A DNA stretch of 64,000 bases from Eledone cirrhosa (lineage: Eukaryota): assembly GCA_964016885.1 (NCBI GenBank), contig OZ024744.1, positions 109,802,001-109,866,000 of the forward strand, read 5' to 3'. Within the stretch, counting starts at the first letter, position 1, and every line of letters starts with the position of its first letter. A program made the translations under genes and the position numbers. Positions 2,338 to 64,000 of this stretch are shown in pieces. Below the pieces are notes generated by a model. The model saw nothing but the letters and a program-made list of their open reading frames with translations. It was not told where the DNA came from and did no database searches.

Positions 2338-2569
2338 ATGTATTTGCATAATACTATACAGAGATTTAATGCTTATTTTCATTGATCATTTGCTCCAGGA
2401 ACTTATTGAGTGCTCTAAATCAGCTTTAAACATTTATACCCTTTTCTAATTATTTATTTATTTATTATTTGTCGTATTCCCAACTTTTTATTTTTATATA
2501 TATATAATATTTATGTATTTTCTTATATATATATATATGTGTGTGTGTGTATGTGTATGTGTATATATA

Positions 2570-2613
<44 letters not shown>

Positions 2614-2726
2614 GGAGGTGAGTTTTATTGTAGTACAATAAAGCAATGCAGATATCGGATAAGAAGCACTCTACAGTTTGTGGGACTGGAGTATGCATAA
2701 TATAAGATCAAAAGATGGTTAAAGGA

Positions 2727-2812
2727 GTTCAATATATTTTATTATGCGCATTTCAAAAACAAACATCATCAAATAATAATATTTGTGTTTTCATCAGATA
2801 AAACAGGAGAAC
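2727..2812 (-). ncRNA. Type I hammerhead ribozyme, mirror copy on the minus strand (left palindrome arm)
   Basis: Exact reverse complement of 2921-3006 because of the palindrome. On this strand it is followed by the conserved downstream hairpin (2693-2667), an AATAAA and then (TA)n. Confidence 0.85.
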
Positions 2813-2920
2813 ATGATATGAAGGCTAAAAAAACACTTGTTGATAGTGCAGTTTTAAATCAACATATATGTTGATTTAAAACTGCACTATCAACAAGTGT
2901 TTTTTTAGCCTTCATATCAT

Positions 2921-3006
2921 GTTCTCCTGTTTTATCTGATGAAAACACAAATATTATTATTTGATGATGTTTGTTTTTGAAATGCGCATAATAAAATATA
3001 TTGAAC
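2921..3006 (+). ncRNA. Type I hammerhead ribozyme with intact catalytic core (right palindrome arm)
   Basis: Stem I is TGTTTTAT(2928-2935)/ATAAAATA(2991-2998) plus GTTC/GAAC. CTGATGA is at 2936-2942, a stem II of about 16 bp at 2943-2978, GAAA at 2979-2982 and palindromic TGCGCA at 2983-2988. U16.1-A17 is at 2989-2990. Confidence 0.85.
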
Positions 3007-3028
3007 TCCTTTAACCATCTTTTGATCT

Positions 3029-3065
<37 letters not shown>

Positions 3066-3607
3066 TATATATATATTTAAGAGTTAAACAAGGTTCATAT
3101 GAATACATCTAAGAATGAGTTTTACACACATACATATGTGTGTGTGTATTTGTATGTATGTGTTTGTGTATATGTATGTATATATGTATATATGTGTGTA
3201 TATGTATTTGTGAATATATATATATATATATTTATATATGTATATATGTTTGTATGTATGTATTTGTGTATGTGTATGTGTGTGTATATGTATATATATA
3301 TATATGTATGTGTATGTGTGTGTATGTATTTATGTTTACGTATGTATGTGTATGTGCAATTGTGTGTATTGCTTACCACGTGTGTTTGTACATTTATCTG
3401 TTGCCTGTATCGCTGTCAACTTTATAATAATTCTTTCATCTATTTTTTATTCTTATGTGACGGTATTTTTATTATTACATTTTTTCTTAAAATTATTTGT
3501 GTGTGCGTATGTAGGTGTGTGTACATATATCTACATTTGTGGATGCGTATGTATGCGTGTATATATGTGTGTATGTATGTACGTGTGTATATATGTATGA
3601 TTGTGTG

Positions 3608-3640
<33 letters not shown>

Positions 3641-3647
<7 letters not shown>

Positions 3648-3905
3648 AAGTAATTCCGTCGGAAAAGACCAGGAAAAAAGAGTGCTCTATGTAGGTAACA
3701 GAGCTTAATAGTTATGTAATAAACAACATAAGGCAATTATTCCATTTACCAGTGGTTTCTTAAAAGCAAAAGATTTTGCTTTCAATCCTCAGAATGAAAA
3801 AATCCTGGTCTGTTTATTGAATTTGGATTTTAAAAACAAAAATGCAATCTATATGGAAGTGAGGCTGGAGAAGGAAGAAGGAAAGGAAAAATAAAATCAA
3901 ACTAC
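3641..3905 (+). repeat. Dispersed repeat module (copy 1; inverted copy at about 6320-6575, partial direct copy at about 5422-5510)
   Basis: TGTGAAGTAATTCCGTCGGAAA...GAGTGCTCTATGT...TTTCAATCCTCAGAATGAAAAAATCCTGG...GTGAGGCTGG matches the reverse complement of 6320-6575 with scattered substitutions. Confidence 0.85.
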
Positions 3906-5639: not shown

Positions 5640-6099
5640 GAAGGGCAAGGCAAAAAGAATATATGGGGGGGGGGGGCATAGGAAAAGGTGAAATATAAGG
5701 GGAGGTAAGGGAGAGAAAAAAAAAATATACAAGAGTACATAACGTAGATTCAGCAAAAAAACCGAAGCAGAAGTAAAGAGCAGAGAAGGAGTTCAAGGCG
5801 GTTGATTTATCATAGGAGTGTCAACCAATTACAGATCAGATGCGATTTCAGATGAGGACAGCATCTGAAGATCTCAGTCTTTGAGTTAAGGCAAGCGGAA
5901 GTGGCTCTCAAGTTTAGCAAAATCCTATACTTTTCTGTGGTACACAAAGAACAATTCTTTGTGCCCCTTTTGTACTCCCTCGAATGGTCTAATATAGACC
6001 AATCAATAGAGTACGGGATATATATAATAAATATATATATAATAAATATTATATATATATTAAAGTTTAAGCAAAGAATCGCTGCTTTCACCCTTAACG
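5640..6099 (-). mobile_element. Non-autonomous Penelope-like element remnant (GIY-YIG C-terminal fragment), copy 2, inverted relative to 428-1380
   Basis: ORF 5810..6091(-) contains IPYSIDWSILDHSREYKRGTKNCSLCTTEKYRILLNLRATSACLNSKTEIFRCCPHLKSH. It shares the CGTTAAGGGTGAAAGCAGCGATTCTTTGCTTAAACTTTA end with position 428. Confidence 0.7.
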
Positions 6100-6319: not shown

Positions 6320-6575
6320 TTTATTTTTCCTTTCCCGCTTTCTTTTCCAGCCTCACTTTCATATAGATTATATTTTTGTTTTTAAAATCCAACGTCAATA
6401 AATACACCAGGATTTTTTCATTCTGATGATTGAAAGCAAATTTTGTTTGCTCTCAAGAAAACACTGGTAAATGAAATAATTATCTTATGTTATTTATTAC
6501 ATAACTATTAAGCTCTGTAACTTACATAGAGCACTCTTTTTTCCTGGACCTTTCCGACGGAATTACTTCACACAT
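6320..6575 (-). repeat. Inverted copy of the 3641-3905 module
   Basis: Reverse-complement similarity over about 250 bp, extending into the adjacent degenerate microsatellite. Confidence 0.85.
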
Positions 6576-7449
6576 ATATATATATGTATGTATGCGTGTA
6601 CGCGTGTGCGTGCGTGCGTGTATGTATGTATGTATGTATGTATGTATGTATGTATGTATGTATGTATGTATGTATGTATGTATGTATGTATGAGGGAGCT
6701 TATAGATAGGACAACACACGCTGTCTTTTCGTGGGGTAAGTTTTTAATTAATTTTTGTATTCTGAAACATCAAAATACAACAATTTTTTGGTCACTGGAC
6801 TCAGGAATGTCACGACAGAAGTTTGTGGAAGTTACACAAATATTTTAGTATATTTTAGCAGAGCAATCCTTATTTATATTTTACATTTTACATTTACTTA
6901 CATCTCAATATAACATGGCTAAAATTCAAATTTTGCAAAGAGAAGAAAACGGACAAATGAACTAGATACATCTCACTGTCCCCCACCTCCACAATAACGT
7001 CTACACTCCCTCCCCACCATCACATGTCATTACCCCATCTAGACTAAAGTCATCGACCTGTTGTCAAACTCTCTACTCTGTGTTGAACGTATATATATGT
7101 ATGTATATGTGTGTATATACATCACTCAGTCAAACGACCAGATTTCAACCCAACATCTACAACAACAACAACACCGGCACTAATGATTACAGCAACAACA
7201 GCTTCAGAATGAACAGAAATCAACATTTACAACAACAACAGAGGCATCAAACGATAATAATAATTTAATAAAAAAATTAAAAAAACCACAAACAAACAAA
7301 AACAACTCAAATAACAAAACACACACACACACGCACACAACACAACAACAACATCAACTACCACCACCACCACCACTACCGCCGCCGCCGCCATCACCAG
7401 CGACCGGGCCTTAAGAAAATAACTTTAATAATAATTTTTCTGCTTTTGG

Positions 7450-7724: not shown

Positions 7725-8194
7725 AAGTGAGTAGAGTAGCGTGTGTGTGTTTGCTGTATGTATGAGTGTTGCTGTGTGCGCATATGTATGCGTGTGTGTG
7801 TATGTCGTACGTATAAGTGTCAATAAGTGAGTTTTTTTATTTATTTTTTTATTTTTCGCGGGGACATAGAAATAATCGGGCTGGATGCCCGATCGCGCAG
7901 TTAAACCACTGGGAGTGAAGAACCCCTAGCCCTTGTCAGGGCATTCTTCTAGGAGAAGGCATCTCGGGAAACTGGGTTAACTCCGATATAAAACCTGCGG
8001 CTCAGTAGTTACCGATGATGTTGATCTTTTCTTCTTTTCGGGTTATAGCTACTGTCGCTCAGAGAGTGGGATTGGCTCAGTGCACAGTCTTTCCTCACTT
8101 TAAAAATATTCGTCACGCACAGGCATTGCACGAGTGCATTAATAATTATTAATATTATTATTACTATTATTATTACTTTTTTTTTTTCAATTCA

Positions 8195-9619
8195 ATGATG
8201 TTCCAGAACAATATAAAAGAGATAATTGGCAATTTAGGTTCTGGAACAAAAAAGATAATTGGCAATAAGGGCAGGGGCCCCAGGTTATCACAGCCTGGGT
8301 CCGCTCGTCATCGTGCCATTGTAATAGAGCCAAACAAGGCACTTAGTCTTGGCTGCTGGAACGTACGGACGCTGCTTGATAGGGATTCCTTGGAGCGTCC
8401 TGAACGAAGGACCGCTCTTGTTGCAAAGGAGCTTCGACGTTACGATCTTGACATCGTGGCTTTATCTGAGACGAGGTTAGCTGGAGATGGTCATCTTACA
8501 GAATTTTGTGGAGAATATACATTCTTCTGGAAAGGAAGAGATGAAGGAACCAGAAGAGAGGCTGGGGTAGGATTTGCTGTTAAGACTGTTCTGAATAAAT
8601 TAGAAGAATTCCCAATAGGGATTAGTGAGCGTCTTATGTCCATGAGAATTCCGCTGGACAAAGGAAGATATGCGACACTGGTGAGTGTGTATGCTTCAAC
8701 TATGAATTCTGTCGATGAAGAAAAAGTGTCCTTTTACCATGCCTTGAAAGGTGTTTTAAGAAATATCCCTCAGGCAGACAAAGTCATCGTGCTTGGTGAC
8801 TTTAATGCTAGAGTGGGTAGGGATTTTAACACATGGAATGTAATCGGAAGGCATGGGGTGGGAAAGTGTAACAACAATAGTATGCTCCTGTTGCAGATGT
8901 GTGAGGAGCTGGATCTGTGTGTTACCAACACCATGTTCCAACAAAAGAACAAATTCAAGACCACATGGATGCATCCTGCATCTAAGGAATGGCATCTTTT
9001 GGACTACGTCCTAGTCAGGATGCGTGACAGACAGGATGTGCAGTGTGTTCGTGTTCTTCGTGGAGCTGAGTGCTGGACGGACCACCGCCTGGTACGCGCA
9101 AAAGTGAAACTAATCACTAAACGTAAAATCCGGGCTCCTGGTGTTGCCCTGCCCAAAAGATTGAATGCTGCTCGTCTTAAGGATAAAAATGTGAAGAGGA
9201 CATTGGAAGAAGAGATGCAGGCTGCAGATCTTGGTGAGGATTGGCCGACCCTTAAAAAGTCGGTTTATGATGTAGGCAGGCGTGTTCTGGGATTGGTGCA
9301 GAGAAAACATCAGGACTGGTTTGATGAGAATGATGTACATATAGAAGACTTGTTGGCTGATAAGAGGCCTGCTCTGTCATGCTACTTGACGGCAAAACCA
9401 CAGGAGAGGAATACGTTGCATGAGGAACTCAAGGATGTAAAATCACGCGTTAGGCGGAGTCTTTCTCAGATGAAGGATCAGTGGTGGAGTGAGAAGGCTG
9501 GTGAGATACAAACTGCGTCAGATTCCAATAACACAAAGCTGTTGTACAGTCTCTTGCGTAAGGTTTATGGACCGTCTTCTTCTCTGGTGCCACCGCTTCG
9601 CAGCAAGGATGGCAAATAA
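8195..9619 (+). pseudogene. RTE LINE apurinic-like endonuclease domain and linker
   Basis: Motifs LGCWNVRTL, DIVALSETR, GVGFAV, VLGDFNARVG, TWMHP..KEWHLLDYVLV, CWTDHRLV and HQDWFDEND. Confidence 0.93.
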
Positions 9620-11304
9620 CTTCTTCGTGACTCACAAGGAATTCTACGAAGGTGGTGAGAGCACTTTGATGATCTTTTGAATCAGCCGTCTGTCGTCAGT
9701 GAAGATTTCCTCAATCTCATTCCAGAAAGTCCTGTGAAAGTAGCCCTCGCAGAACCTCCGACGCTTGTGGAGGTTGCAGTGGCTATCTCGAAGCTGAACA
9801 GTGGAAGGTCTCCAGGCATGGATGACATACATGCTGAGCTCCTACAATATGGTGGTGAGAGACTCCTGCAACATCTTAACTCTTTATTTGGCAGGATATG
9901 GGCTAATGAATCCGTACCTGAGGACTGGAGAGATGCAGTAATGGTGGTCTTGTACAAGGGAAAGGGTAACAGGAACGATTGTGGGAACTACAGAGGTATA
10001 TCATTGCTTTCTGTCGTAGGGAAAGTTTTATGTAGGGTGCTTCTAGACCGTCTGCTGACGCACATTGCAGATTGTGTTCTTCCTGAAAGTCAATCTGGTT
10101 TTCGTGCTGGGCGCGGCACTACTGATATGATCTTCTCAGCTAGACAGCTCCAGGAGAAGTGCATGGAACAAGGCTTGGATCTGTATCAGGTTTTTGTAGA
10201 TCTGACAAAAGCTTTCGATACTGTTAACAGAGTGGCATTGTGGAAGGTTCTCCAGAAACTTGGTTGCCCTGATAAGTTCCTTGCTTTAGTTAGATTTTTC
10301 CATGACGACATGAAGGCTTGGGTTAATGTCGGAGGTAACATGTCGGAGCCTATCTCAGTAAAAAATGGAGTGAAACAGGGGGATATTCCAGCACCGACCC
10401 TGTTTTCCATATACTTTGCAATGGTTTTCTGTATTGCATTCAGGAATTGCGAGCATATTTAACATCAGGCGCTTTGCTGCAAAGACAAAAGTATTTAACA
10501 TCAATCATAAGAGACCTCTTGTATGCAGATGATTGCGATCTTGTAACGCACACAGAGAGTGATATGCAGCACATTTTGAATGCATTTTCTGACGCTTGCA
10601 CTGCCCTAGGATTGACTATCAGTCTCAAGAAAACTGTCGTCATGTACCAACCTGCCCCTGGTAAGCAGTACACTGAACCAAATATCTATGTGTATGGTAA
10701 ACGACTGGTTGATCAGTTTGTCTACCTGGGAAGCACTGTCAATCGATACAGCAACCTTGACAGTGAAATCTCACTTAGGATTAGGAAAGCAAGTGATGCT
10801 TTCGGAAAGCTAGAAAGGCGACTCTGGGGTCGGCGAGACATATGCAGGGGGACAAAGGTAAAGGTGTACAAGGCATGTGTGCTCTCTTGTCTTCTTTATG
10901 CATGCGAGATCTGGGTCACATATCGATACTACCTTAAGCAATTGGAGCGTTTCCATCAGATGTGTCTCAGACGGATCCATGGCGTTCAGTGATGTTGAGA
11001 TTTTGGAAAGCTCTATGTGTGACAGTATAGAAGCTCTTGTGCTTAAGCAACGACTCCGTTGGAGTGGTCACCTTGCCAGGATGAAGGATTCTTTTATGGA
11101 GAGTTGGTTAAAGGAAAACGACCGCCACATAAACCAAAAAAGAGGTATAAGGATTCCTTAAAAGCCTCTTTGAAAGACGCTAACATCTCTGCTGATACAT
11201 GGGAAAATATTGCTGCTGATCGTAATAAATAGAGAAAGACTGTATATGAGGGAAAAGTTGCCTTTGAGGCATCTCGAATCGCATACGAGAAAGTAAAGCG
11301 GGAT
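9620..11304 (+). pseudogene. RTE LINE reverse transcriptase and thumb region (disrupted)
   Basis: Motifs GNYRGISLLS, ESQSGFRAGRGTTDMIF, FVDLTKAFDTV, GVKQGD, LLYADD (second frame), FVYLGS, RLRWSGHLARM and KRYKDSLK. Confidence 0.93.
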
Positions 11305-11661
11305 GTGAGGAAGGGCATTGCTGTTGCACTTCCAGACGGCGAGGCTCCTCCTATGGTGCTGACATGCAGCGTATGTGCGAGACTCTGCCTAAGCAAAGCT
11401 GGACTCGAAAGTCATCTTCGCAGTCATAAAGTAAGACCAGTGGTTGACTACCAGGCTGCTGTTGGAGATGCTACTCCTCATGCTTGCCAAACATGTGGTA
11501 GAGAATGTAAATCAGCAGGAGGGCTCAAGCGACATGCAAAAGTACATGAACTCCAACCACAGCCGGCTATTCCCAGTGAATGTTTTGGTTGCCGACTCTA
11601 TGCAAGACATTTTAGATCATTGGCTGAGTTAAAAAGCCACATTCGATCGCAGCGCTGTTAG
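11305..11661 (+). pseudogene. RTE LINE C-terminus with three C2H2-type zinc fingers
   Basis: CSVCARLCLSKAGLESHLRSH, CQTCGRECKSAGGLKRHAKVH and a degenerate CRLYARHFRSLAELKSHIRSQ. Confidence 0.85.
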
Positions 11662-12584: not shown

Positions 12585-13157
12585 TTAAACCAGCCATCTC
12601 ATTTCGCTTCTCTCTGATCGGTTGTTTATTTGCGGTTGCAGGCGTTTGATGAAAAGCGCTTCCTTGATACGTAACGTGCCGACGTTTCTTTCAGTCGCTA
12701 GAATTGTGACAATCGGCCTTCCGTCTTTGTTTCCGCATTTGTCTATGTGTTTCCGGAAAGACGAGGCCCTGGATTTAGTGTGTTCCTTGATCCGGATGTG
12801 CAAAGGTCGAATTGTGCTACCTACGTAGTATTGGTTGCACGTGTCACATTCTATCTTATACACGACGTATGTGCGTAGGCAACAGTTCGCATGGCGTATC
12901 GGGTAGTCTCTGAGGGAGCATGCGTCAGTAGATTTCCCGGGTTTCCTGGAGAGGCATCTTCGCAGGGAGGGGCCCGAGTGGGCCAGGTGGATGTCGAGGC
13001 CCTCCCTCCGTATAGCCTTGCGGATAGCGTTGGTGGTTTTCTCGCCCAGGTGTGGAATTTTAAGGAAGCACTTGCCTTGGGTGCCTCTCTGTCTCTTGCG
13101 TCTGGTGTCTCCTATTCTGTCTGTGATCGAGGTAGGGTACCCGTTCGTCTCCAGCAC
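12585..13157 (-). pseudogene. Penelope linker and GIY-YIG endonuclease
   Basis: Motifs LETNGYP, VVYKIECDTCNQYYVGSTIRPLHIRIKEH and IKEALFIKRLQPQIN. Confidence 0.92.
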
Positions 13158-13214
13158 CTCGAGGAATCGCTTGGTATGAGTGACACCACTCGCGGGATTG
13201 CATCTGTTTTTGAT

Positions 13215-14006
13215 TCACGCGATCTCGTTCGTGATGTATCCTCTTTTGGCACTGTTAGGGAGGGCGGACTTGTAGTGAACGAACAGGTCCCTGCAGGCTG
13301 CCTTTCGGTAGAAGTTGCAGTGGATCCTTCCCTGTTCCGTGATGTTGATTCGGAAGTCGAGGAGGGCAAGTGACCCGTCTTCGTTGGGGTGTTCAACACT
13401 GAAGTCAATGTTCTCGTCCGTGTTGTTGAACGTCTCATAGATTCTGTTCGCCGTGTCTTGGGAAGGTGTGAGGATGAGGATATCGTCCACGTACCTTGAG
13501 AAAAAGGCTACGGCGTTGGGGTGGCAGGCGTTGAGTGCCTTGCGTTCGAGGTTGTCCATGTAAGAGATCGCTAGCACACCTGATAGGCTTGATCCCATGG
13601 GCAATCCCGAGGTTTGTTGGTATGTTTGGTCAAGTAATCCGAAGTAGGTGTTGTCGACGACGATGGATAGGAGTTGGTGGATGTCAGTGGTGGTGAGCCT
13701 GAAGCAGTGTAGGTCGGTGGATTGGACGCGTTCCAACAGTATATTGACGGCCGGGAGTGCCGGGACCGAGGTGTAGAGAGCGACTACATCAAGGCTGAAG
13801 GCATATCTGTTATTCCTTCTGGTTTCGGGATCCATTTGATGCAGGCGCTTCAACACCTCCTCGGAGCTGTTGACGTGTCCCGGCAAGGTGTCTAAGATGG
13901 ATTTGTGTATTCTGGCTAGGAGCCATGAAATTTTGTAGAGTGGTCCCTCCACGCTCGATACGATGGGCCTGATCTTCAGGTCGGGTCCCTGTTTGTGTGT
14001 TTTCAC
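13215..14006 (-). pseudogene. Penelope reverse transcriptase (N-truncated)
   Basis: Motifs KTHK...IRPIVS, FSLDVVALYTSVP, QTSGLPMGSSLSGVLA, RYVDDIL, LALLDF, FYRK and HYKSALP. Confidence 0.93.
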
Positions 14007-14055
14007 GAGCCTTGATGTAGTCGCTCTCTACACCTCGGTCCCGGCACATTAGGAT

Positions 14056-14794
14056 ATGGCGACGAGACTACGAACGAGCGAAGCGATTAGGGCATTTACC
14101 GGTGATTAGGGCATTTACTGGTCGCAAGCTTACAGAAGATAGAAGATGTGGCTGACCTCATGGCACTGTACCTCGAGGGGGCGCGTTGGTACTCTTCCTT
14201 GAGTTGGATGAACACAGCCAAAGGGATGCGCAAAAGATTGAGAGGCGCATGATGGAAGCGTTTGCGGAGGGACCGTTAGCCGCTTTTGCTAAGCTGGCAA
14301 GAATTAGATGGAACGGTGAACTCGTTGACATTTTCGCAGCGGAAATACGGCGATTGGCCATGTTGGCTGGATATCAGGTGGAATGCGAACGCACGGCGCG
14401 GTTGGCGTTCATAAATGGATTTCCAGACGACATAGCGGTGAAACTGCAGCAAGTCCCGGGTTACAAAGAAATGGAGATGCGTTCACTGGTGGAGCAAGCC
14501 CGCATCATAGCAGAAGATGCCAAGAAGAGTGTCGCGGCGATAGCAACTACAGAGGCTCAAGACAGTTGGCAGCGGAATGGTGAAAGGGAGGCAACCACAG
14601 TACGCGGTCGCCCGCGAACGTTTAGAGGTCGCTGTTTTAGGTGCTAGGGCCCGCACATAGCGAGAGACTGTAGAGAGTCAAGGCCGGAAATAATATGCTA
14701 CCGGTGTAAGCGACCAGGCCACATCGCTACTAACTGCGACCAGGGAAACGATCCAAGGGGAACTACTGCGCCGGTAGTTTCCCCTTACGAGTAG
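14056..14794 (+). pseudogene. gag: gypsy gag with two CCHC zinc knuckles
   Basis: MATRLRTSEAIRAFTGD start and LYLEGGAL. Knuckles are CFRC*GPHIARDC (premature TAG at 14645-14647) and CYRCKRPGHIATNC. The natural stop is at 14792-14794. Confidence 0.85.
14743..14786 (+). promoter_or_regulatory. -1 programmed ribosomal frameshift signal (G GGA AAC plus downstream stem-loop)
   Basis: The heptamer at 14743-14749 is in the gag frame. It is followed by a 5-nt spacer and the hairpin AAGGGGAACTACTG-CGC-CGGTAGTTTCCCCTT. The -1 frame is open into the protease ORF. Confidence 0.8.
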
Positions 14795-14805
14795 AGGCGC
14801 TGCCC

Positions 14806-17520
14806 GTGGTGGAAGTCTTCGTGAGGGGAAAGCCACAGCGACCCCTCGTGGACACGGGTTGTACGACGATACTGGTGACCGCGGGGGTGGCACAGAGGTG
14901 GAGAGGGAAGAGCAGCGTAAGGGCAGTCGACGGCAGGAAAATTGAATGCAGAGGTCGCAGCGAGATGGAGATGGCGGTACGGAGAAGGAAAATAAGGCTT
15001 TCTGCCATCGTAGTTGACAACGTGGTGGATGGGAACGGCGTGGTTATGGGCGTGGACGCAATTAGCCGTCTAGGAGGCGTCACAGTGAACAACGTCGGTG
15101 TGTCGTTTGGCGGCGCTGCATCGGTATGCGCTGTGAGTACGCGACAGGAGAACGAGAAGGCCCACGAGGAGAAATACCCCGCTTACACTGTGCAGGACAA
15201 AGACTTCAAGACCATGTTCGATGGGCAGCGATGGGTTGTTGAGTGGTACTGGAAGGGAGAACCACCAACACTGAAGACCAAAGTGGGCTGCTATAAACAC
15301 ACATTGAAGGGAAACATTAGGAGCGAGTTCGAGCGAGAGTTAGAGAGAAGGATTGGGAGGGCATACTGATTCCCTGGAAGGAGGAGGTGAAGTGCGGAGT
15401 ATTGCCGTTAATGGCGGTGGCGCAACCCACGAAGAACAAGGTGAGGACGGTACTAGACTTTCGGGAGCTGAACGAGCACGTGGCATGCCACACGGGTGGC
15501 GAGGTCACGGATGTCTGTGGGGAAACCCTGCGTGAGTGGAGACGCATGACGGGGGGTTCCGCAATCGTAGATCTAAAGTCGGCATACTTACAATTACACA
15601 TAGATGAGAAGCTTTGGTAGTATCTGCTGGTCAGGTATAAGGGCCGGAGATATTGCCTGACCAAGCTCGGTTTCGGGCTGAGCTCCGCACCGAAGATCAT
15701 GGCGGCGGTCCTCAAGACCATTCTGGGAAAGGCCGACAAGATGAAGAGGGCCTACATTGACGCCATCCTAGTGGACGAGTCTGTAGTGTCGGCAGCGGAG
15801 GTCACGAGCCATTTACAGGGGTATGGACTGGCTGCGAAGCCGTCAGAAGCGTTGGGGGAGGAGCCGCGCTGGGGCTTAGGCTACGGTAAGACAGGACGGG
15901 CGTCTTGGTATTCCAGAGGGGAAATGAAGTTCCAGAACTGGGCCCAAGTATGAGTAGGTGGGAGCTTTTCTCGATGTGTGGAAAGTTGGTGGGTCACTAC
16001 CCGATTGCTGGGTGGCTCCGGACGGCATGCAGCTATGTCAAGAGACGAGCGGGAGGGGTGACTTGGAGTGACAGAGTGGGAGAGAGGACAGTGGCCATGG
16101 TGCAGGAGATCGTGGAGAGGGTGAAGGCCGACGACCCAGTGCGGGGACGCTGGTATGTTCCCAAATCGCAGAGCGGGACCGTATGGTGCGATGCCAGCAG
16201 CATAGCGCTGGATGTCACGTTGGAGATAGGAGGTGTTGAGGTCGAGGATGCAGCCTGGCTTAGGAAGAAGGACGACTGCAACCACATCAATGTGGCCGAA
16301 CTGAACGCGGTGTTGAGAGGGGTGAACCTCGCCCTGAGGTGGGGTCTGCACACCATCGAGATACGCACCGACTCGGCTACTGTACTTGGATGGGTGAGAT
16401 CAGTGCTCACCAGTGAGAAGAGAGTGCGAACGAGAGGGGCGGCGGAGATGCTGATAAAGCGCCGCCTGGGAACATTAGGAGAGCTGGCCACCGAGTTCGA
16501 CCTGAGGCTGAATGTAGTTTTCGTGCCCTCAGAGAAAAATAGGGCGGACGTCTTAACCAGGGTGAAGAAAGCCTGGATGGAAGCGCCGGAGGAGGTAGAA
16601 GAGGAGATAGCTGCCGTGTGTCGGCTGACCGGAGTCGCATCTGAAAGGGTTGCTTGACATGCATCACATGGGAGTGGATAGGACCCTGTTCCTAGCCAGT
16701 AGAATCGACTCGGACGTTAACAGACACAGTGTTCAAAGGGTGGTTAGAGGCTACGTCCGATGTCAGTCCATTGATCCCGCCCCGGGTGTGCACGAAACGG
16801 GAAGCCTCCCGGTGGATCTCGACTGGAAGCGATTGGTGGTGGATGTAACGCACTACCGACAGGAAACGTACCTCTCGATGGTCGACTGTAGACCAGGATG
16901 GATGGTGATATGGAGGGAGATGAAGACTGGAACGGCCGAGGAAATCATGCGGACGTTGAGAGAGGTGTTCTTGGACAACAGCGAAGCGTTCAGCTCGGAG
17001 GCGCTGAGGGAGATGCTCGATGGATGGAAGGTGGACTGTTTCTTCAGAGCAGCGTGCAGGCCGACCGGAAATGGAATTGTGGAGCGACACCACCGGACGA
17101 TCAAGGCAATGGCGGAGCGGGGCCACATCTCACCAATGGAGGCAGTGTTCTGGTACAACATGTCCCCTCGGGTGGGACAGGTTGAGGAATCGGTGCCACA
17201 CAGAGCAGTATTCAGATACGAGTGGCGGCACCCGTGCACGCCACCACAACGGCCAGTGGGGAGAGAGAGTGGATTCGTGTAGGTGGGCGAAGAAGTCTGG
17301 GTTAAGGCCCCAGATGTACGTTGCACATCTCAATGGGGAAGGGGAACGGTGACGGCTTAAATTCCCAGAACAATGTGTCCGTGGACGGAGTCCCACGTCA
17401 TGTCCTGGATGTCCGTAGAATCACTGTCAACGGACTCCGAGGAAGAGGAAACCCAAAGTGCCTCCCCAACACTGAGGAGATCGCAAAGAAGTCGCAAACC
17501 ACCAACCTGGACAGCAGACT
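14806..17520 (+). pseudogene. pol: gypsy pol (protease, RT, RNase H, integrase), disrupted
   Basis: Protease: LVDTGCT. RT: VRTVLDFRELN, DLKSAYLQ, LGFGLSSAP and YIDA (YxDD mutated). RNase H: WCDAS, INVAEL, RTDS, NRADVLTR. Integrase: HMGVDRT, VDVTHY, LDNSEAF, NGIVERHHRTIK. Confidence 0.92.
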
Positions 17521-17571
17521 TTCATATGCAGAAGGACGAGGGGGAAATTTATCCTTGAGATCAGCGGGGCG

Positions 17572-63900: not shown

Positions 63901-64000
63901 ATGTGTCTCTACCTCACTGTCCCTGTCTCTCTACCTCTCTGTCCATGTGTCTCTACCTCTCTGTCCATGTGTCTCTACCTCTCTGTCCATGTCTCTCTAC
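18934..64000. repeat. 22-bp tandem satellite CTCTACCTC[T/A]CTGTCC[A/C]TGT[G/C]T, about 2,050 monomers, running off the window end
   Basis: Uninterrupted head-to-tail array with occasional 20-, 21- and 24-bp variant monomers. Higher-order duplications are traced by rare variants. Confidence 0.99.

Follow-up and report, generated by a model that had tools for sequence, protein, structure and literature searches.

We analysed a 64,000-nucleotide stretch of the Eledone cirrhosa genome (the window) in which a perfect 340-bp palindrome marks an inverted pair of pLTRs from a Penelope-like retrotransposon (PLE). Judging from the junctions of its sister loci, such an inverted pair probably consists of two separate cDNAs, both copied from a capped, uncut sense RNA and twin-primed in a (TA)n target. 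A single palindrome is ordinary for a PLE, and inverted pLTRs are known; the junction statistics are the new part.

The insertion in the window and its parent element

The two arms (2697–2866 and 2867–3036) are exactly complementary over 170 + 170 bp with a 0-nt spacer, and the first mismatch falls at arm position 171. The palindrome is also the top entry in the inverted-repeat listing of the window, and the preliminary description of a perfect 340-bp palindrome is borne out. The inserted sequence extends beyond it, as the left arm continues for 88 nt in element sequence to about position 2609, so that the whole element is a 428-bp insertion (2609–3036). The long arm (2609–2867, minus strand) comprises the first ~259 nt of a PLE transcript, namely the pLTR with its hammerhead plus the tail, and has its distal 3' end in (TA)n. 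It differs from an intact tandem copy (L032) by one mismatch over 259 nt, with a boundary that is fuzzy by a few nucleotides in the (TA)n. The short arm (2866–3036, plus strand) comprises the first 171 nt of the same transcript, is 100% identical to L032 over those 171 nt, and has its proximal 3' end in (TA)n. The arms meet at a head-to-head joint (2866–2867) with a 2-nt AT overlap, where each starts at the A of an initiator-like TCA(+1)TAT; we infer this A to be the transcription start. The tail (2609–2696, minus strand) is the 88 nt between the two 3' ends and is carried by one arm only. Sequence of the (TA)n target flanks the element on the left (2581–2610) and on the right (3037–3062). With a single mismatch to the intact unit over its whole length, the element falls into the youngest subfamily that we saw, and in this sense the insertion is young, as had been claimed.

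The preliminary description had proposed a genome search for other copies. Using the right arm as the query against the 3.0-Gb source genome (65 candidates, 40 scored), we found 54 matches, of which 38, the two arms of the window among them, showed no difference along the full 170 nt, and many formed inverted pairs. Three matches lay in tandem, 3,918 bp apart, and define a 3.9-kb unit with an 800-aa RT/GIY-YIG ORF that begins 338 nt past the arm start and is uninterrupted in two units. The Penelope-like origin suggested for the palindrome is therefore upheld, but the idea of a small non-coding retroelement fails since the sequence is the 5' end of an autonomous PLE. The parent tandem array (L031–L032, C3:26,516,001–26,536,000), which has the two uninterrupted ORFs and is preceded at the 5' end by a partial copy in inverted orientation, is a candidate active source.

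The parent is almost certainly a member of the Hydra clade, which was defined among C-terminal-endonuclease PLEs by Craig et al. (2021; PMC8557442); the assignment was made by comparing motifs and the (TA)n target with that definition, as far as the accessible text gives it. Its protein carries a YRDD RT motif, and a structural model (pLDDT 79) matched RTs in Foldseek, with TERT at ranks 2–3. Pfam and PDB sequence searches with the 800-aa protein returned nothing significant. The C-terminal GIY-YIG domain was recognized from its motifs: LIY...YFG, which aligns with VIY...YIG of the homologs, and the residues R, E, and N. Among the Hydra motifs we found SDKT, the linker CNCRIKNKC (CxCX5C), and CNLC-NEK and NRR-CLH around E and N; the RWK position reads RWT in the parent and RWK in 12 of 21 homologs. 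As in other EN+ PLEs, the pLTRs occur in tandem or inverted and the tail is on one side only, and insertion into (TA)n is seen at the window flanks and in sister loci. The element thus resembles the Hydra clade (PMC8557442) in its single ORF, DKT, CxCX5C linker, C-terminal GIY-YIG with CxxC/CxH, pLTR hammerhead, and (TA)n target, and PLEs in general (PMC8557442) in the inverted 5'-truncated copy with a one-sided tail. It differs from the clade as described there in its unit length (3.9 kb versus generally <3 kb), RWT for RWK, a tail of about 88 nt versus 30–40 nt, an Asn-rich stretch of about 100 aa, and about 20,000 arms. The Asn-rich stretch (residues 561–665 of the ORF at L032:2963–5362, minus strand; 26/105 N) is a low-confidence region between the RT and the linker.

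Two other classes were considered and rejected. Naiad/Chlamys PLEs have an N-terminal endonuclease and no canonical hammerhead, whereas our element has a hammerhead and carries its endonuclease motifs at the C terminus. Non-LTR retrozymes consist of short head-to-tail units that each carry a hammerhead, whereas the layout here is head-to-head and the sole tandem seen is the 3.9-kb coding unit.

Other repeats lie around the insertion. Two dispersed-repeat pairs in the window are inverted (961–1146 with 5825–6010, and 3623–3895 with 6320–6593) and 88–91% complementary. By eye, we recognized a broken LINE with AP-endonuclease and RT frames (8,153–11,660, plus strand), a second, different Penelope-like fragment with a YVDD RT and then a GIY-YIG-like frame (12,585–14,027, minus strand), and a broken LTR retrotransposon with gag, protease, RT, RNase H, and integrase-like frames (14,050–17,550, plus strand). 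A 22-bp satellite array runs from 18,930 to the window end at 64,000, with >2,000 copies that are about 94% alike and a strong strand skew. Just upstream of the window (L251:6642–7711) lie old fragments with about 70% identity to the parent ORF.

Head-to-head joints across the genome

The rarity implied by the preliminary description does not hold. We counted 1,976 head-to-head joints genome-wide at the same centre as in the window, and loci whose arms are identical form the largest class (22 of 48 loci, with one locus counted twice). Among 49 distinct joints listed, the 2-nt overlap of the window occurred in five and a 4-nt overlap, the commonest form, in 18; the rest had fillers or small deletions. 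Arms differed on average by 2.25 positions within loci versus 8.5 between loci, which may mean that one RNA molecule served as template for both arms, although gene conversion or descent from one active source would have the same effect. Arms of all intermediate lengths occur, up to full tandem units. The joints and arms inspected were those at the head of the listings, almost all from one contig (C1), and were chosen by arm-anchored patterns.

The arms end at two 3' positions about 90 nt apart, both in (TA)n. Every classifiable joint paired one long with one short arm: the 34 start-site joints comprised 25 long-plus-short pairs, one short arm with a partial tail, eight that could not be classified, and no long-plus-long or short-plus-short pair. 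An overlapping set of 94 arms, in which a few loci are present twice, gave 58 mixed and 34 unclassified calls, and the remaining two were called short-plus-short but run into the tail by eye. Both 3' ends are also seen next to (TA)n in the raw reads of another study (1,191 + 338 and 275 reads). In an accessible part of the report on another PLE, the tail is likewise tied to two internal start sites of reverse transcription (PMC11167929).

The two arms of a locus need not share the same stretch of the transcript. In seven loci (L003, L016, L035, L043, L046, L047, and L049) the short arm extends farther upstream than the long arm and is without a tail. In 11 loci (nine detected by script and two by eye) the long arm is <90 nt and stops inside the tail, so that no sequence is common to both arms. 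Folding back can only copy what the template already contains, so arms of which neither includes the other, or which have no common sequence, are not fold-back products.

At the start shared by the arms, TCATATG is kept across subfamilies with differing flanks, and it resembles the initiator consensus. Native upstream sequence before the arm start was found in none of 30 inspected arms. An A or G at position -1, where the element has C, was present in 2,278 arms (G in 79 of the first 100 listed), and one base later only 104 arms had a G or C. When 94 of the 2,278 arms were examined, 60 of the -1 bases had another possible source (54 as part of a natural element 9-mer and six by local duplication). 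The remaining -1 bases were 28 G versus six A, compared with 17 G versus 64 A for other filler bases (Fisher p = 1.5e-9), and four loci carried the extra G on both arms. Extra G at full-length 5' junctions of L1 has been ascribed to the cap in the part of that report available (PMC11702581), and the centre of the palindrome likely corresponds to the capped 5' end of the RNA. Untemplated addition of C by the RT would mimic this cap mark, and would still imply run-off at the 5' end.

The hammerhead motif and the state of the template

Each arm carries a type I hammerhead motif, recognized from sequence, fold, and pair counts across subfamilies in the right arm (2928–2998, plus strand) and present as its exact reverse complement in the left arm (2735–2805, minus strand; predicted cut between 2743 and 2742). 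In the right arm, stem I pairs 2928–2935 with 2991–2998 (8 bp, one G-U), followed by the core CUGAUGA at 2936–2942, a stem II of 15 pairs and one mismatch with a 4-nt loop, and GAAA. Stem III is the palindrome AUGCGCAU, after which comes the U-A cut site. The elements of a type I hammerhead (CUGANGA, GAAA, and UH around three stems) are thus all in place, and the sequence layout agrees with the earlier claim of a complete ribozyme on both strands with a palindromic stem III and a cut after A2990. In transcript coordinates, this predicted cut is at +125, and the ORF begins downstream of it at +338.

The preliminary description had also proposed a check with the Rfam hammerhead model, and here the outcome was negative. 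An Rfam scan of the window gave no matches at the gathering score, and no hammerhead was among the 67 matches in 2500–3200 at E ≤ 10, where only hairpin-shaped miRNA matches below the gathering score were returned. The Rfam hammerhead models may fit poorly to a motif with such a long stem II and a stem III of two pairs. The hammerhead core pattern had 19,857 exact matches genome-wide versus none for the reversed control, which excludes chance.

Predicted folding of a single arm gave pair probabilities of 0.46–1.0 for stems I and II. Stem III was predicted with a probability of 0.001 as a monomer and at -10.5 kcal/mol as an 8-bp homodimer, and the isolated hammerhead fold was only modestly stable (z of -1.0 to -1.7). 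When the whole palindrome is folded, a predicted hairpin of -264.7 kcal/mol takes up the motif, which supports, as a prediction, the earlier claim that a read-through hairpin competes with the ribozyme fold. Across 31 sequences, 95.4% of stem cells were paired, a figure inflated by the relatedness of the sequences, and conservation of the core is not independent evidence because the core was set by the search patterns. The pair at the base of stem II was GC in 15 sequences, GU in eight, and AU in seven, and changes from G-C through G-U to A-U from divergent to young subfamilies. A more divergent subfamily (L252–L281, 781 core matches) has the canonical G-C at this position, and the young subfamily of the window has A-U. 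By these comparisons, the hammerhead fold looks to be still maintained. The ribozyme would be a passenger in the pLTR that needs a partner RNA for stem III and would be off in read-through transcripts of the palindrome.

Junctions near the ribozyme cut were also searched for signs of a cleaved template. Joints close to the cut numbered 157, far fewer than the 1,976 at the start, and both arms fell within 3 nt of the cut in nine of the 50 near-cut joints listed. Foreign bases just 5' of the cut were found in 206 arms versus 47 at a tail control, an excess of about two-fold after rough normalisation, and a minor pool of cut RNA is a possible template. There was no breakpoint peak at the cut among 30 inspected arms, which were spread over four positions. 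Together these counts suggest a template of mostly uncut RNA; the accessible text on another PLE reports that ribozyme mutants insert normally in vitro (PMC11167929). At L120 and L121, ORF sequence in both arms is joined directly to the predicted cut-site base in the same orientation, which is possibly a template jump from cut RNA.

A model for inverted pLTRs and its alternatives

In the insertion model that we favour, the element's protein would nick both strands of (TA)n, and reverse transcription would be primed internally near the RNA 5' end, at about +259 on one strand and +171 on the other. Each cDNA would then reach the 5' end of the RNA, often with a C added opposite the cap, and the AT-ending cDNAs would be joined, either through microhomology of 0–4 nt or with a few filler bases between them, before fill-in. 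Completion of both cDNAs would leave a perfect palindrome with a one-sided tail, as in the window.

The palindrome had originally been read as a fold-back insertion, in which one strand primes on and copies itself, and self-priming on an antisense template was proposed for head-to-head palindromes in the available part of Arkhipova et al. (2013; PMC3846280). The identical arms of 22/48 loci fit this explanation, and a hairpin with a 4-nt loop would leave a 4-nt overlap, so the commonest of the 49 listed joints could also form by snap-back. However, the unnested arms in seven sister loci and the absence of common sequence in 11 loci do not support it, nor do the four loci in which each arm has a G ahead of its sense start, and the one-base spacers or the 2-nt overlap of the window are too tight for a hairpin loop. 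We consider fold-back or self-priming unlikely. It is very unlikely that the palindrome is a self-contained, non-autonomous element (retrozyme- or MITE-like) that is mobile as one unit. The roughly 2,000 loci of near-equal size would suit such an element, and pLTR-derived retrozymes are described in the accessible text of a recent report (10.64898/2026.07.22.740005). Retrozymes are, however, head-to-tail tandems, arm lengths here are continuous up to full tandem units, and overlaps and fillers at the centres vary by locus, as if every joint had arisen anew.

A pair of independent, oppositely oriented insertions that recombination or gene conversion then trimmed or made alike might be expected in a family with about 20,000 arms that targets (TA)n, and inverted repeats are generally known to be prone to conversion. 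Yet this history does not predict the strict long-plus-short pairing, the exact common start, or the untemplated G, and we find it barely credible. Finally, perfect palindromes can arise in sequencing, and our view of the window locus comes from the assembly. An assembly or library fold-back artefact, a concern raised in the preliminary description, is nonetheless scarcely conceivable here: the mirror ends at an element-specific site with unmirrored flanks, the same anatomy recurs on many contigs, and the raw reads of the other study link both 3' ends to (TA)n.

Twin priming on a capped RNA, the reading we prefer, agrees with the in vitro behaviour of the Anolis Poseidon PAc element, for which the accessible text (Frangieh et al., 2024; PMC11167929) describes two internal start sites that define the tail, nicking and extension of both strands, an AT-rich target, a predicted dimer, and uncut RNA as the main substrate with a dispensable ribozyme. 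The hammerhead of PAc overlaps the ORF start, whereas ours lies wholly in the 5' UTR. In the same part of that report, second-strand and joining steps are left unvalidated, and no rule of one start site per arm and no cap mark is given. The Penelopes of Adineta vaga (PMC3846280) share head-to-head pLTRs, joint palindromes, a tail at one end, an initiator-like pLTR motif, and Asn-rich inserts. Self-priming on an antisense template was favoured in the available part of that paper, with the question left open, whereas our counts favour two cDNAs from capped sense RNA. In L1 twin priming (PMC11702581, in the part available), both target ends are extended by RT and joined by microhomology, and full-length 5' ends bear an additional G. 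Inversions of L1 are sporadic and mostly do not overlap, whereas here the arms usually duplicate the same sequence from two fixed starts. The accessible text on non-LTR retrozymes (PMC7229834; 10.64898/2026.07.22.740005) describes a similar type I hammerhead, which has a weak, palindromic helix III and is more effective in dimeric form, and a pLTR origin has been proposed; retrozymes are head-to-tail tandems that yield circular RNAs, unlike the head-to-head pair here. Judged from the listings of our searches in mostly open-access literature, no paper reports twin priming, a long-plus-short rule, a cap mark, or a second-strand model for PLEs.

A broader reading goes further; we hold it only tentatively and think it possible rather than probable. 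In every insertion, an asymmetric protein pair would use a single capped RNA to prime both target strands, from two fixed sites with some 90 nt between them, and the second enzyme would displace the first cDNA. An inverted pLTR and its tail would then be the product of one event with no conventional second strand. The hammerhead would stand outside integration as a dimer-dependent 5' UTR switch that removes the cap from the mRNA, and the A-U for G-C replacement at the stem II base would have weakened it in the youngest subfamily. The roughly 2,000 palindromes would serve as a built-in source of hairpin RNA and as outward-facing promoter pairs. The possible self-silencing switch put forward in the preliminary description has a precedent in Drosophila, where siRNA self-silencing from Penelope inverted repeats is already known from the accessible part of an earlier report (PMC3681739).

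The origin of PLE inverted pLTRs and tails, and whether the template is sense or antisense and cut or uncut, is a question left open in the available parts of previous reports (PMC3846280, PMC8557442, PMC11167929). This family bears on PLE insertion with thousands of fresh junctions, and intact source ORFs exist. For the genome that hosts them, the perfect AT-rich palindromes, about 2,000 in number, could be of consequence both as fragile sites and as a source of hairpin RNA.
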